Shown in pieces: positions 5,178 to 25,602 of a DNA stretch of 64,000 nucleotides. Origin of the DNA: Thermoanaerobaculia bacterium (GTDB lineage Bacteria; Acidobacteriota; Thermoanaerobaculia; UBA5066); assembly GCA_963816185.1 (NCBI GenBank), contig CAWFJJ010000006.1, positions 1,326 through 65,325 on the forward strand, written 5' to 3'. How positions within the stretch are numbered: position 1 is the stretch's first letter; every line of letters begins with the position of its first letter. The notes beneath the pieces were generated by a model. It did no database searches. It worked only from the letters and a program-made list of their open reading frames with translations, and had not been told where the DNA came from. The position numbers were made by a program, and so were the translations under genes.

Positions 5178-5969
5178 TCATCCTTTCGGTGCCGTGCCGA
5201 CCTCGAACACCTCTCGCACCTCTCCGAGCGGCGCGCCGCCTTCCCCGAAGCTCCTCTCCGCGAACCGTGCCGTGCCGTCCGTTCCAACGACGAGGGCCGT
5301 CTGGGCACGCGTCCCGTAGCCTGGGAGCAGGACGAACGCCGCAGAGAGAGCCCGCTCCCAATCCGGCGGCAGGCCCGTCGCCGGGAGGTCGCCGTCGGGC
5401 GCAACGGTCCGGTCCGCGAGAAGGTCCAGGAGCCGGCGCTCGAGGTCTTCCGCGCCGTCGGCGGTCTCGAGCGCCGCCTGGACGCGCGAGCGGGCGGTCG
5501 TCACCTTGGGCCACGGCGTTTCGAGGAGGTGATTCGAGAGGCCCCAGACGCCGGGACCGAGGAGCTTGGGGTCTCCCTCCACGTTCGAGAAGGACCATAG
5601 CTCGGCTTCGTCCGAGACGAGGAGGTTGAAACCGTGGTAACGGCCTGCGCCGGCCCGAGCCGCGGCGACATAGTCCGCCGCGGCGGCATCGCCCCGCAGG
5701 AAGTCCGCAACGAGCGCGCCGCGCGAGGGCGCGCCGTCCTTCTTCGGAGCCGACGCGTCCCGGAAGTTCGTGAGCGCGGCGAACCGGCCCCGTCGCGTGA
5801 CTCCCATCCACGTCCCGCCCGCCTCGAGGTCGCGACCCGCGAGAACATCCGGCGCGTCGGCCCACCATGCGGCCGGTGCGGCGTGGCGCGCGAAGAACTC
5901 ATCGCGGTTGGCCGCGACGGCGAGGCGCGTCCTCGGCGACGCCTCCCACGCAAGGACGATCAGGCACAT
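5178..5969 (-). CDS. NRDE family protein (DUF833/TANGO2-like)
   Basis: 263-aa ORF starting MCLIVLAW with the eponymous VAANRDEF motif and GGTWMGV. Confidence 0.85.
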   Translation of the reverse strand: MCLIVLAWEASPRTRLAVAANRDEFFARHAAPAAWWADAPDVLAGRDLEAGGTWMGVTRRGRFAALTNFRDASAPKKDGAPSRGALVADFLRGDAAAADYVAAARAGAGRYHGFNLLVSDEAELWSFSNVEGDPKLLGPGVWGLSNHLLETPWPKVTTARSRVQAALETADGAEDLERRLLDLLADRTVAPDGDLPATGLPPDWERALSAAFVLLPGYGTRAQTALVVGTDGTARFAERSFGEGGAPLGEVREVFEVGTAPKG

Positions 5970-22563: not shown

Positions 22564-22579
22564 TGGCAGCGTACTTGCT
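22564..22579 (+). promoter_or_regulatory. sigma-54 (-24/-12) promoter
   Basis: TGGCAG-CGTAC-TTGCT with canonical GG/GC register (22565-66 / 22577-78). Lies ~30 nt upstream of the probable TTG start of the next gene. Confidence 0.55.
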
Positions 22580-22607: not shown

Positions 22608-23420
22608 TTGTCGTCTGTCCTCATCTCTCGCGGCACCATGTCGGGCGGCGAGGCATTGGCTCATCGCCTGGCGGAGCGTCTCTCCCTCCGTTACGTCTCC
22701 CGGGAGGACCTCATCGAGGTGGTCGACGCCCAGGGCGAGCACGCGAAGAAAGTCAGGGCGAGCCTCGACCGCGCCACCCGCGCGTACGACCAGTTCGGCC
22801 AGCTCCGCCGCCCGTACCTCGTGCTGATGCGACGTGCCTTGCTGGGTTTCATCCGGGAAGGCAACGTCGTGTACGCCGGGTACGCGAGCCATCTCCTCGT
22901 GCCCACCGTGCCCTGTTGCATGCGCGTTCGAATCAACGCCCCCATGTCCCTCCGGGTCAAGAATGCAATTCAGCGGCTCGGCCTGGGGGAGGAAGAGGCG
23001 CGCGAAGCGGTTCTGCGCGAGGACGAGCAGCGCGTCCGGTGGGGTCGCTTCATGTATGGGCACGACATTCGCGACCCGAATCTCTATGACGTCTGTTTTC
23101 TGCTCGACAGGATGTCGGTCGACGCGATCTGCACCATGATCGCCGCGGGTCTCGGTGAGAAGGATTTCCAGCCCACGCCCCAGGCTGCGAAGGCGCTTCA
23201 GGATCTTTTCGTCGCCGCGAGCGTCGAGGCGGCGCTCGTGAGCGATCCCCGCACGCTCTCCTGGGAGATCGGGGCGCGTTCGCGGGGTGGAAACGTCCTG
23301 CTGGAGGGGCCGTTCCTCGAAGATCGCAAGCTTATCGACGTCCTCGAGGTCGCGCGAGGAGTCGAGGGCGTCGAGGCCGCCGAGTACCAGCCTGGATGTG
23401 TGTCGAGTTTCGACCACTGA
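22608..23420 (+). CDS. cytidylate-kinase-like (PF13189-type) P-loop protein with C-terminal BON-like domain
   Basis: In-frame part of ORF 22575..23420. The track start (TTG 22575) lies inside the sigma-54 promoter, so TTG 22608 (GGGGGA upstream) is preferred. VLISRGTMSGGEALAHRLAERL matches the family N-terminus (ITIsRexGSGGxxIaxxLA). Confidence 0.6.
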   Translation: MSSVLISRGTMSGGEALAHRLAERLSLRYVSREDLIEVVDAQGEHAKKVRASLDRATRAYDQFGQLRRPYLVLMRRALLGFIREGNVVYAGYASHLLVPTVPCCMRVRINAPMSLRVKNAIQRLGLGEEEAREAVLREDEQRVRWGRFMYGHDIRDPNLYDVCFLLDRMSVDAICTMIAAGLGEKDFQPTPQAAKALQDLFVAASVEAALVSDPRTLSWEIGARSRGGNVLLEGPFLEDRKLIDVLEVARGVEGVEAAEYQPGCVSSFDH

Positions 23421-23451
23421 CCGATTGCCAGCGTATGCCGGGAGTCAATCC

Positions 23452-24339
23452 ATGCCCATAACAGCCGACACCAGCCGCCGCGCCGCCTTCGAAACGATAA
23501 GAGAATTCCTCGTGCGAGCCGCCGAGGCCGAGGAATCGCTGATCCAGCTCGCCGCGGCTCGCAACGAGCTGCTCCGGCACTCGAGCAAGACCGGCGACGA
23601 CCTACTGGGCTTCACCTCCAACACGACGGACCTGACCGAACGACAGACCTCCATGGCCCAGGAGCGGACCGCCCTGACCCGCGAGCAGACGCGCCTCTCG
23701 ACCCGAAGCACCGAGCTCGCGAACATCCGTACGGAGCTCGGCCGCGAGCGAACTTCACTCGCCGGCGAACGAACCGACATGGCGGTGGCCCGGACCGAAA
23801 TGGCGCGCCGCCGCTCCTCGCTGGCCGAAGGACGCACGGGTCTCGCGCAGTCGCGAACGGTTCTCGCCGAAGAGCGCACAGGGCTCGCGAAGCAGCGCAC
23901 CGGCATGGCGCACGAGCGGACGGACCTCTCCGTCACGCGCACCAGCATGGCGCGTGAACGCAACGAGCTCGCTCTCCAGCGCACCGACTACTCCGTGCGC
24001 CGAACCAACCTCGCCGGGGAGCGAAACCAGCTCGCGACGGTGCGTACGGTCAGGGCCGCGTCGCGCACCCGGCTTTCGTTCCAGAGGACCGAAATGGCCC
24101 GGGAGAGGACGTACCTTGCTCTCCTGCGCACGGGCCTCGCCTTGCTCACTTTCGGAGTCGTTCTCTTCCGGACGTTCGGAGTCTCCTGGTGGAGCCTCTT
24201 CGACGGGGCACTCGTCCTCATCAGCATCGGCCTCGTCGTCGTGGGATCCTCGGGTTATGTCAAGAGTCACCGGCTGGTGCAGAAGCTCGGCATTCTGATC
24301 CAGTCCGACAGGGGGCTGACGGATCTCGAAGCGGGCTGA
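23452..24339 (+). CDS. DUF202/YidH-like membrane protein with ~23 tandem xRTxLAx heptads
   Basis: 295 codons from ATG 23452 within ORF 23287..24339. Residues ~60-225 are an uninterrupted heptad series (ERTALTR EQTRLST RSTELAN IRTELGR ERTSLAG ERTDMAV ...). It ends in the DUF202-type ERTYLALLRTGLAL motif and two TM helices. Confidence 0.65.
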   Translation: MPITADTSRRAAFETIREFLVRAAEAEESLIQLAAARNELLRHSSKTGDDLLGFTSNTTDLTERQTSMAQERTALTREQTRLSTRSTELANIRTELGRERTSLAGERTDMAVARTEMARRRSSLAEGRTGLAQSRTVLAEERTGLAKQRTGMAHERTDLSVTRTSMARERNELALQRTDYSVRRTNLAGERNQLATVRTVRAASRTRLSFQRTEMARERTYLALLRTGLALLTFGVVLFRTFGVSWWSLFDGALVLISIGLVVVGSSGYVKSHRLVQKLGILIQSDRGLTDLEAG

Positions 24340-24353
24340 TTCCGATACGAAGG

Positions 24354-24956
24354 TCAGGTTGCAGCGGTTCCGGCATCGCGACGCCCGCCGTGCTCTGCCG
24401 TGTCAGTGTCTGCCTGAAATTTCTCGACTTGATAGACCGCAAGCTGCACGGCACCAGCCCAAAGGCCGGCGGGAACCCCGGCCTTTTGCTTGAGAAGAGC
24501 CATGAACTCGCGCGGCTCCGGGTGCTGGCTCCAGACCTGCGGCAGAAAAGTGGCGCGCCGCCCGCCGTACTGAAAAATGACGCCGTCGACGCCCGGACGA
24601 AGGAGGCTCAGGGCTTCCGCCTCGCTGCTGAACTGGAGCGGTTGCGGCGCGGTCAGCACGGAGACCTCGATGCTCACGGCAGACAATTCCTCGGATGCAA
24701 GGGTTGGAAAGCGCGGGTCGCCAAAAGCGGCGGCGCAGGCGTTCCGAGTCACGTCGTCGTAGAGGGAACGATGCGCCTCGAGCGAGCCGATGCAGCCGCG
24801 CAGCCGCCCGTGAAGGGTGAGGGTGACGAAGGTGGCAGCCGGCTCGTCGAGCCAGAGGGGACGTGGCAACGCGGGCCAAGCCTCGCCGAATTCGGCCGCT
24901 ATGGCGGCGCGTGCCAGTGAGGTGAGAAGCCGCCCTCTGGCCTGATGCTCCGTGAG
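24354..24956 (-). CDS. AMMECR1 domain protein (AmmeMemoRadiSam system protein A-like); start codon unresolved
   Basis: C-terminal ~200 codons of ORF 24354..25262. Motif LHGRLRGCIGSLEAH. The family-like N-terminus (LTEHQARGRLLTSLARAAI) has no ATG, GTG or TTG nearby. The long upstream extension is Arg-rich and overlaps the divergent gene at 25162. Confidence 0.65.
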   Translation of the reverse strand, partial: LTEHQARGRLLTSLARAAIAAEFGEAWPALPRPLWLDEPAATFVTLTLHGRLRGCIGSLEAHRSLYDDVTRNACAAAFGDPRFPTLASEELSAVSIEVSVLTAPQPLQFSSEAEALSLLRPGVDGVIFQYGGRRATFLPQVWSQHPEPREFMALLKQKAGVPAGLWAGAVQLAVYQVEKFQADTDTAEHGGRRDAGTAAT

Positions 24957-25161
24957 CGAATGAGTTCCTTCCGTAAGGCCACCGCCGCGTAACCGACGAC
25001 GCGCCCTTTGTCGACGACCGCCTCGTCGGGAGTTCCGCGAGTCTATCAGGCGGGCACGAACGTGTCGCCGTGAACCGCGGACCTTTACGCTATAGAATCG
25101 TCGCGCGTTCAAACCAACCCGGCGCGACGCACGTTCGCGCCCTTTCCAGAAAGGAAGGTCC

Positions 25162-25602
25162 ATGAGACGTTTCCTCACTTTCACCGTCGCCGCGCTGTTC
25201 GTGGTCGCGGCCTTCTCCGTCTCCGCGGGCGATCCGCCGAAGGGCGGAGGCGACGCGGCCAAGAGCCCGCAGGCGAAGGTCTACCTCGACTGGGTCAAGG
25301 CCGTGAAGGCTGGGAACCTCGACGCGTGGAAGAAGGTCGTTCCGGCCGAGGCGTCGCAGCAGATCGAAGCCCAGGCCAAGGAGATGAAGAAGACGCCCAA
25401 GGACGTGCTCGAGTTCCTCGGGGCGATGACCCCGGACGACAGCAAGATCACGGGCCTCAAGGTCGACGGAAAGAAAGCCACGCTCAAGGTGACCGGGAAG
25501 ACGAAGGGCGATCCCAAGCCCTCGTATGGGAGCGTCGAGATGATCCAGGAGGGAGGCGGCTGGAAGGTCGGCAAGCAAAGCTGGAGCGACAAGCCGGAGT
25601 AG
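25162..25602 (+). CDS. secreted hypothetical protein
   Basis: 146-aa ORF. RBS GAAAGGAAGG. Signal peptide MRRFLTFTVAALFVVAAFSVSAG. Lys-rich mature part. Confidence 0.6.
   Translation: MRRFLTFTVAALFVVAAFSVSAGDPPKGGGDAAKSPQAKVYLDWVKAVKAGNLDAWKKVVPAEASQQIEAQAKEMKKTPKDVLEFLGAMTPDDSKITGLKVDGKKATLKVTGKTKGDPKPSYGSVEMIQEGGGWKVGKQSWSDKPE

Follow-up and report, generated by a model that had tools for sequence, protein, structure and literature searches.

Why would a small bacterial membrane protein carry a seven-residue motif 25 times over in front of its membrane domain? The question is raised by one gene in a 64,000-nucleotide stretch of DNA (the window) from contig CAWFJJ010000006.1 (assembly GCA_963816185.1) of a Thermoanaerobaculia bacterium of the phylum Acidobacteriota. 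The gene encodes a protein in which a DUF202 domain is preceded by a long array of xRTxLAx heptads, referred to below as the stalk. Bacterial DUF202 proteins are widespread, and mechanistic knowledge of the domain comes only from the eukaryotic VTC polyphosphate channel; in the searchable literature we found no function for the bacterial members.

Results

An uninterrupted heptad array leads in register into a DUF202 domain

Across residues 57-231 the protein can be cut into sevens without a single insertion or deletion, giving 25 consecutive units. A preliminary description of this DNA had placed about 23 heptads at 23629-24130; that the array is uninterrupted proved right, while its extent had been drawn too short at both ends (25 units, 23620..24144). 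Arg occupies the second position in 21 of the 25 units, Thr the third in 22, Leu or Met the fifth in 23, and Ala the sixth in 18. The lag-7 identity autocorrelation was 0.38, compared with 0.107 in shuffles (z = 11.5); lags of 14, 21 and 28 gave z = 12-15, and lags that are not multiples of 7 all fell below expectation. At the DNA level, the 21-nucleotide (nt) units have a mean pairwise identity of only 51%, and Tandem Repeats Finder detects just 2-3 copies, at 23644-23705. Judged by this divergence, the array of the window protein is old and is not a product of recent slippage, as the preliminary description had also held.

The array joins the two-transmembrane (2-TM) DUF202 domain in register, with no phase shift. 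The entry motif of the domain, E-R-T-x-L-A-[WL]-x-R-T, is present at the cytoplasmic start of the first transmembrane helix (TM1) as ERTYLAL LRTGLAL (residues 218-231), within the Pfam match (Table 1), and R219, T220, L222, R226, T227 and G228 are invariant in the family. The last units of the array are, as had been recognized earlier, this entry motif, and the array repeats it. The accompanying statement that the motif normally occurs about once needed correction: ordinary DUF202 members have about two in-register units (KVFFANE RTFLSWL in Vtc1), against 25 in the window protein, and several subfamilies have 5-12.

Vtc1 and YidH have three transmembrane helices, whereas here there are only two hydrophobic helices. 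Since the Pfam model spans TM1 and the second transmembrane helix (TM2) only, membership of the domain family stands, and the window protein is a 2-TM DUF202 subtype.

Table 1. Coordinates of the stalk gene, its parts and associated features (window positions, except for the last row, where positions are those of each locus)
Feature	Position	Strand	Details
Gene for the heptad-stalk DUF202 membrane protein	23452..24339	+	295 amino acids; stop codon 24337-24339
Shine-Dalgarno-like GGGAG	23440..23444	+	7 nt ahead of the ATG at 23452; read from the sequence
N-terminal head, residues 1-56	23452..23619	+	predicted helical, in the heptad register of the stalk, with ordinary hydrophobics at positions 2 and 5
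25 uninterrupted heptads, residues 57-231	23620..24144	+	consensus E-R-T-x-L-A-x; net charge ~+13
Most conserved stretch of the family, RQTSMAQ ERTALTR EQTRLST RSTELAN	23641..23724	+	conserved at outward positions too; candidate docking site
Middle block of 8 heptads, residues 141-196	23872..24039	+	missing in 16-heptad homologues; length-variable zone (heptad-level alignment with L044)
DUF202 (PF02656) match, residues 212-270	24085..24261	+	E = 1.4e-9; 38.6 bits against a cut-off of 23.4; profile positions 1-63 of 68
TM1, ~residues 221-240, YLALLRTGLALLTFGVVLFR	24112..24171	+	stalk helix predicted to continue through it (AlphaFold2)
TM2, ~residues 246-266	24187..24249	+	from the AlphaFold2 helix 248-285 and the sequence
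Cytoplasmic tail, 29 residues	24250..24336	+	polar; follows TM2, no third transmembrane helix
Partner gene, 281 amino acids	22575..23420	+	PF13189, cytidylate-kinase-like; start TTG at 22575 or ~11 codons later
3+2 gene-pair loci	L085 2109-4830; L088 3751-6091; L089 298-2824; L090 747-3660; L091 2893-contig end		three-module gene followed by two-module gene

The register is kept across a large family

A protein search recovered at least 219 related clusters, mostly of 236 amino acids and largely from metagenome-assembled genomes (MAGs) of Acidobacteriota, with generic database labels ('DUF202 domain-containing protein' or 'YidH (DUF202 family)'). When one genome of each species was scanned, 96 matches were obtained, and the best 80 of these 96 were taken as loci; all 80 are in MAGs, of Acidobacteriota, Gemmatimonadota, Myxococcota, other deltaproteobacterial lineages and Ignavibacteria. 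The stalk family is common in soil bacteria.

We analysed the heptads of 79 species-level homologues in which both ends of the array could be anchored, 1548 heptads altogether. In all 79, an exact multiple of 7 residues separates the first conserved heptad from the one that enters TM1, and the net charge of the array is +8 to +19. The arrays have between 14 and 30 heptads (values found were 14, 16-24, 27 and 30), with 16-17 and 22-24 as the preferred sizes. Neither a proline nor a conserved turn motif occurs in the 1548 heptads. Arg fills position 2 in 85% of them, Thr position 3 in 91%, Leu, Met or Phe position 5 in 93%, and Ala or Ser position 6 in 91% (99% when Thr and Gly are included with them), and position 1 is Glu or Gln in 40%. 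The preliminary description had treated an array of this length as something out of the ordinary; comparable numbers turned out to be common (22-30 heptads in 32 of the 79 homologues, 24-30 in 14), yet none was found described. The closest relatives of the window protein have, like it, about 24 heptads.

Orthologues of single heptads can be recognised in different phyla: the ~11 units at the start of the array and the 5 at its end pair off one-to-one, and the 8 extra heptads of the window protein form the middle of its array. Heptads 2 and 3 (ERTALxR and EQTRLST) have mean column identities of 0.88 and 0.96, and of 0.71 and 0.95 at the outward positions 4 and 7, making them the best-conserved part of the entire protein, outward-facing positions included; A69, E71, R77, Q79, T80, L82 and E88 are the invariant family columns near the N-terminal end of the array. 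Younger duplications are seen in two homologues. In locus L026, a 42-nt (two-heptad) unit is repeated in tandem 3.2 times at 94% identity (5410-5625), giving a 27-heptad stalk, and in L017 a 42-nt tandem unit at ~77% identity (5428-5597) gives a 30-heptad stalk. These two-heptad duplications indicate that array length evolves by duplication of units, with 42-nt duplications in the middle in some lineages.

P0224 and P0219, the latter a trimeric-autotransporter-like adhesin, also matched the profile but are unrelated heptad proteins and were excluded. Pfam holds no family for the head or the stalk, and the NCBIfam matches of the stalk protein amounted to weak coiled-coil noise. A few homologues carry the precomputed Pfam accessions PF28019, PF28175 and PF27734, for which no such model matched in the Pfam copy used; the rest were sub-threshold coiled-coil families.

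Arg is assigned to the core of a predicted long helix

The 63 N-terminal residues share the register of the stalk and display a normal a/d pattern: in 157 distinct homologues, the hydrophobic fractions at heptad positions 1 to 7 are 0.08, 0.40, 0.26, 0.06, 0.60, 0.26 and 0.06. As these N-terminal hydrophobics sit at positions 2 and 5 of the same register, the Arg of the stalk is assigned to the core position 'a', Thr to 'b', Leu to 'd', Ala to 'e' and Glu or Gln to 'g'. On a helical wheel, E-L-R-A-T make up one contiguous face and just positions 4 and 7 are variable; the conserved face, drawn in this way, is wider than a two-stranded coiled coil requires. As in a canonical coiled coil, the 7-residue period is never broken along the predicted helix of the stalk; only in the head, however, are 'a' and 'd' both hydrophobic, since in the stalk 'd' is Leu, Met or Phe and 'a' is mostly Arg. 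A class-A amphipathic helix lying on the membrane surface, as in apolipoprotein- or LEA-like proteins, was considered and rejected, as Arg falls between Leu and Ala on the wheel and not at the edge of the hydrophobic face.

The AlphaFold2 (AF2) model of the window protein, built on a 62-sequence alignment, has a predicted local distance difference test (pLDDT) score of 89 and a predicted template modelling score of 0.40, and consists of helices 5-147, 154-242 (through TM1) and 248-285. The break between the first two helices has a pLDDT below 50 and lies in a block that is absent from most rows of the alignment. For P0039, a 16-heptad homologue with a gap-free 63-sequence alignment, AF2 predicts a single helix from residue 3 to 187 that runs through head, stalk and TM1 and is followed by TM2 (mean pLDDT 87). 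Given the low score of the break, its poor coverage and the unbroken helix of P0039, the hairpin in the window model is probably a coverage artefact. The stalk had been proposed to be a cytoplasmic coiled coil or solenoid; the cytoplasmic position and the predicted helix are supported, and a solenoid is not, because AF2 gives long straight helices. Foldseek returned no match for the window model at E <= 0.001.

The stalk repeats a motif from the mouth of the VTC channel

In yeast VTC, five DUF202 domains (three from Vtc1 and one each from Vtc3 and Vtc4) form the polyphosphate channel, with the five TM1 helices lining the pore. K24 and R31 of Vtc1, which lie 7 residues apart (K622 and R629 of Vtc4), each make a basic ring in the cytoplasmic vestibule, E30 of Vtc1 (the Glu of its ERT) forms an inter-subunit 'ionic lock' salt bridge, and the narrowest point of the pore is set by M42 of Vtc1 (PMC9911596; bioRxiv 10.1101/2023.01.27.525886). 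Residues 24-36 of Vtc1 read K-V-F-F-A-N-E / R-T-F-L-S-W (the sequence was checked and is identical to chain 8i6v_A), that is, two heptads of the stalk type, in which R31 is the R of ANERTFLSW. K24 and R31 thus stand at heptad position 2, and M42 at position 6. By this comparison, the R and A positions of the stalk are the positions that face the pore axis in the only DUF202 assembly solved.

What the window protein has in common with Vtc1, Vtc3 and Vtc4 (PDB 7ytj, 8i6v and 9umg) is the DUF202 family and its TM1 entry motif E-R-T-x-L-A-x-x-R-T. In a comparison of folds, Foldseek matched the transmembrane part weakly to chain 9umg_A of Vtc1 (E = 0.83, probability 0.92, TM-score 0.20/0.49, with 26% identity over 70 columns). 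When PDB sequences were searched with the family profile or the DUF202 part, only chance-level matches came up. VTC also has SPX and TTM domains, where the window protein has a cytidylate-kinase-like partner instead; neither Pfam domain was found in the stalk protein, in the partner or in the neighbour genes scanned in the window and three other loci.

A kinase-like gene is paired with the stalk gene

The gene immediately upstream and on the same strand (Table 1) accompanies the stalk gene in 83 of 84 homologous loci from several phyla, and in the only exception the contig ends 48 nt upstream of the match. No other neighbour is conserved in the window and the three called neighbourhoods. The intergenic gap is 31 nt in the window, from partner-gene stop to stalk-gene start, and 8-135 nt in nearly all homologous loci. 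One pair 80-83% identical to that of the window is found in a genome binned as 'Acidithiobacillales' (L006, JBLMYG010000057.1), whereas the other close relatives are all labelled Acidobacteriota; this placement may reflect a binning error or horizontal transfer.

The partner matches Pfam Cytidylate_kin2 (PF13189) over residues 17-175 with E = 1.9e-27 and 97 bits (threshold 28). It reaches 28.8 bits with the (d)CMP kinase equivalog TIGR02173, below the cut-off of 102, and its closest solved structure is 3fdi, an uncharacterised structural-genomics entry (E = 2e-4). The P-loop region is conserved as liSRGtMsG, which departs from Walker A, GxxxxGK[ST], in having no Lys-Ser/Thr. The C-terminal ~100 residues (window 23100-23417) are weakly BON/OsmY-like (NCBIfam E = 3.4e-4, Pfam BON E = 0.065, PDB 8rjx E = 0.04). 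The partner has no evident signal peptide and is therefore probably cytoplasmic. BON domains are familiar chiefly from phospholipid-binding proteins of the periplasm, and a BON-like domain on a kinase-like, presumably cytoplasmic, fold is an unusual combination.

Heptads 2 and 3 are a candidate docking site for the partner, because they are conserved even at outward-facing positions. We also considered that the partner phosphorylates the Thr of the stalk, and rejected this, as the same Thr is kept in DUF202 proteins that have no partner, and the partner has no Walker-A Lys.

Sister proteins carry three plus two heptad-extended modules

We compared the family profile with 1.84 billion representative proteins, which gave 2851 matches at E <= 1e-3 and 54 at E <= 1e-30. 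Among the matches is a second class of ~430-570 amino acids (P0125, P0130-P0134 and P0137; E = 1e-36 to 1e-62), in which an MshEN-type N-terminus is followed by three modules, each of 5-6 xRTxLAx heptads and a 2-TM DUF202 domain. In five of five independent loci (Table 1), the three-module gene directly precedes a gene with an MshEN-type domain and two modules, usually with overlapping starts; at the fifth locus the second gene appears to be frameshifted. This class shares with the stalk family the 2-TM module type and the heptads, and differs in the small number of heptads per module, in the fusion of the modules and in having an MshEN-type domain in place of the separate kinase-like partner. 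Because three plus two equals the five DUF202 modules of VTC, these gene pairs suggest a pentamer and, by analogy, point to a five-fold assembly of heptad-extended bacterial DUF202 domains. At L089 and L090, a HisKA sensor kinase and a response regulator lie downstream of the pair.

DUF202 modules thus accompany cytoplasmic domains for phosphate or nucleotide ligands in three settings: SPX/TTM in VTC, MshEN in the multi-module proteins and PF13189 in the stalk family. That this holds in all three supports a partner that would regulate or feed the channel.

Heptads of another flavour, S-E-H-R-T-D-L, precede the DUF202 motif in P0195, P0205, P0207 and P0225 (~180-230 amino acids, apparently with three transmembrane helices), in 8-10 copies, which suggests that heptad expansion arose in several DUF202 lineages. 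In P0222 (489 amino acids), eight xRTxLAx heptads and a DUF202 domain are fused to a polytopic, transporter-like membrane domain of ~300 amino acids.

Gene boundaries

Homologues align from the Met at 23452, which was taken as the start; a longer, GTG-initiated open reading frame (ORF) from 23287 runs into the end of the upstream partner gene. A consensus scan for promoters and terminators around the operon found nothing exceeding shuffle expectation. The palindrome AAAGGCCGG-cgggaacc-CCGGCCTTT, with one further T, at window 24461-24486, 120 nt past the stop of the stalk gene, resembles a bidirectional terminator; it was not reported by the consensus scan and falls within the 3' part of a convergent AMMECR1 ORF (24354..25262, - strand).

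Discussion

A possible architecture

The reading that we favour, tentatively and just short of calling it probable, is that the stalk is a parallel, probably pentameric, coiled-coil extension of a DUF202 channel with Arg in its core, and that the upstream protein is its partner. The inner-membrane protein would be essentially one very long helix, comprising a head with a hydrophobic core, 25 heptads with Arg at 'a', and TM1 of the 2-TM DUF202 domain. A lone helix of this length would be unstable and so needs stabilising partners, and the membrane anchor would make a homo-oligomer parallel. Several copies, most likely five, could thus assemble side by side, with their TM1 helices forming a pore of the DUF202/VTC type and their cytoplasmic extensions forming a stalk of ~26 nm (by arithmetic, from ~1.04 nm per heptad), which the hydrophobic head and the membrane domain would clamp from its two ends. 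Leu-Ala seams would pack the helices, and Arg, together with Glu or Gln at 'g' and Thr at 'b', would make a polar, net-positive core or lumen, so that the geometry of the basic K24/R31 rings at the mouth of the polyphosphate channel would recur in every heptad. The partner, kinase-like and BON-like in its two parts, would be obligate; its docking site is probably the head or the invariant heptads 2-3, and it may regulate or feed the channel.

Some features of this architecture have parallels elsewhere. Pentameric and higher parallel coiled coils and alpha-helical barrels (COMP, phospholamban, CC-Pent, CC-Hex) use a wide g/a/d/e interface with Ala at 'e' and Leu at 'd', and the stalk heptad E-R-T-x-L-A-x resembles the heptad of a designed hexamer, E-L-K-A-I-A-Q, save for the residue at 'a', which is hydrophobic in the barrels and Arg in most stalk heptads. 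The M1 pore helix of Orai, a hexamer, has a cytoplasmic extension of ~3 turns with axis-facing, anion-binding Arg/Lys. Both Orai and the stalk would extend a pore-type transmembrane helix with basic residues; there is no sequence kinship between them, and the extension has ~3 turns in one and ~50 in the other.

Several observations weigh against a pentameric stalk with Arg in its core. With five Arg in each layer, the repulsion between them would have to be relieved by counter-ions or a polyanion, and Glu at 'g' is found in just 24% of heptads. Arg at 'a' with Leu at 'd' also fits a simple dimeric rod of the leucine-zipper kind. The AF2 predictions are of monomers, the window model has the low-scoring break at residues 148-153, and its weak Foldseek matches (E >= 0.29) include antiparallel hairpins such as HlyD, Tsr and MacA. 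VTC has three transmembrane helices, of which the third is part of the subunit interface, and the window protein has two. Without the Walker-A Lys, the partner may be a non-enzyme. The 3+2 argument derives from a different DUF202 subfamily. Finally, neither the window genes scanned (16.9-31 kb) nor the three called neighbourhoods showed a PPK, TTM or SPX. VTC provides polyphosphate as the sole precedent for a substrate, and the stalk locus has no link to any polyphosphate enzyme.

A bolder form of the proposal, which we regard as quite improbable, is a five-helix alpha-helical barrel in which 14-30 rings of Arg make a positively charged tube of 15-30 nm on the DUF202 pore, holding or conducting a polyanion such as polyphosphate, with the partner loading or gating it; this would be a bacterial counterpart, made of different parts, of the 'synthesise-and-thread' mode of VTC.

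Other explanations of the stalk

The alternative that we take most seriously, although we consider it unlikely, is a plain dimeric or trimeric tether of the leucine-zipper kind, which would have no channel and would space the head and the partner from the membrane, with Arg snorkelling outwards to pair with Glu at g'. Dimers of the bZIP type likewise combine a heptad-spaced Leu with an 'a' residue that is polar or charged, the Glu or Gln content of position 1 would provide for the pairing, and two preferred sizes are what one might expect of a spacer. A tether, however, leaves unexplained the conserved Thr at 'b' and the small residue at 'e', as the conserved face takes up 4-5 of the 7 positions, wider than a dimer interface. 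Nor does it account for the 3+2 genes, or for an array exactly in phase with a pore-lining helix, in a domain whose only solved example forms a pentamer. The stalk might instead fold back near its middle into an antiparallel hairpin, as in chemoreceptors or HlyD/MacA-like proteins, with the head beside the membrane and growth at the tip. The two helices of the window model and the best, if weak, Foldseek matches are of this kind, length variation is concentrated mid-array, and two-heptad duplications would extend both arms equally. Yet the break that would form the turn is poorly scored and falls inside the 8-heptad block missing from most alignment rows, the stalk of P0039 is predicted as part of an unbroken 185-residue helix, and the 1548 heptads offer neither Pro nor a turn motif; moreover, odd as well as even numbers of heptads occur, and the first helix would exceed the second arm by 65 residues. 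We therefore think a hairpin rather improbable.

There is also a slight chance that the stalk is a rod that binds a polyanion on its outside, be it polyphosphate, nucleic acid or anionic lipid, for instance as a tether between the membrane and granules or the nucleoid. This would account for the positive net charge of every homologue, the Arg-Thr pair of each heptad could coordinate phosphates, and the partner has a BON-like domain, BON being a fold noted for binding phospholipids. Nevertheless, Arg occupies the position that is the hydrophobic core in the head and not the variable outer face, and a lone 26-nm helix would require bundling anyway. As the region is very GC-rich, with long shadow ORFs on both strands, the array might finally be suspected of being a compositional, low-complexity artefact or a mis-called ORF. 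Conservation effectively refutes this: single heptads have orthologues in different phyla (for example ERTALTR EQTRLST RSTELAN), there are at least 219 homologous clusters, the Pfam domain is in frame, the operon structure is conserved, and the AF2 models have pLDDT values of 87-89.

Significance

The DUF202 domain family is known, and the proteins themselves are in the databases under a generic label; what appears to be new is the heptad stalk, its Arg core, the pairing with a partner gene and the 3+2 class. We found no paper that describes any of these, most text matches to DUF202 being similar names (DUF2023). A natural, long and phase-perfect array with Arg at nearly every 'a' would be an unusual case for the study of polar-core or barrel coiled coils. 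Since the motif at the mouth of the VTC channel is here repeated up to 30 times in strict phase, the stalk family shows which face of this helix matters, the strictly paired upstream gene offers a handle for studying DUF202 function, and the 3+2 gene pairs of the sister class predict a pentamer. If it is true that the stalk binds or conducts a polyanion, the family would indicate that soil bacteria have a hitherto unrecognised route for polyphosphate or a polymer like it.

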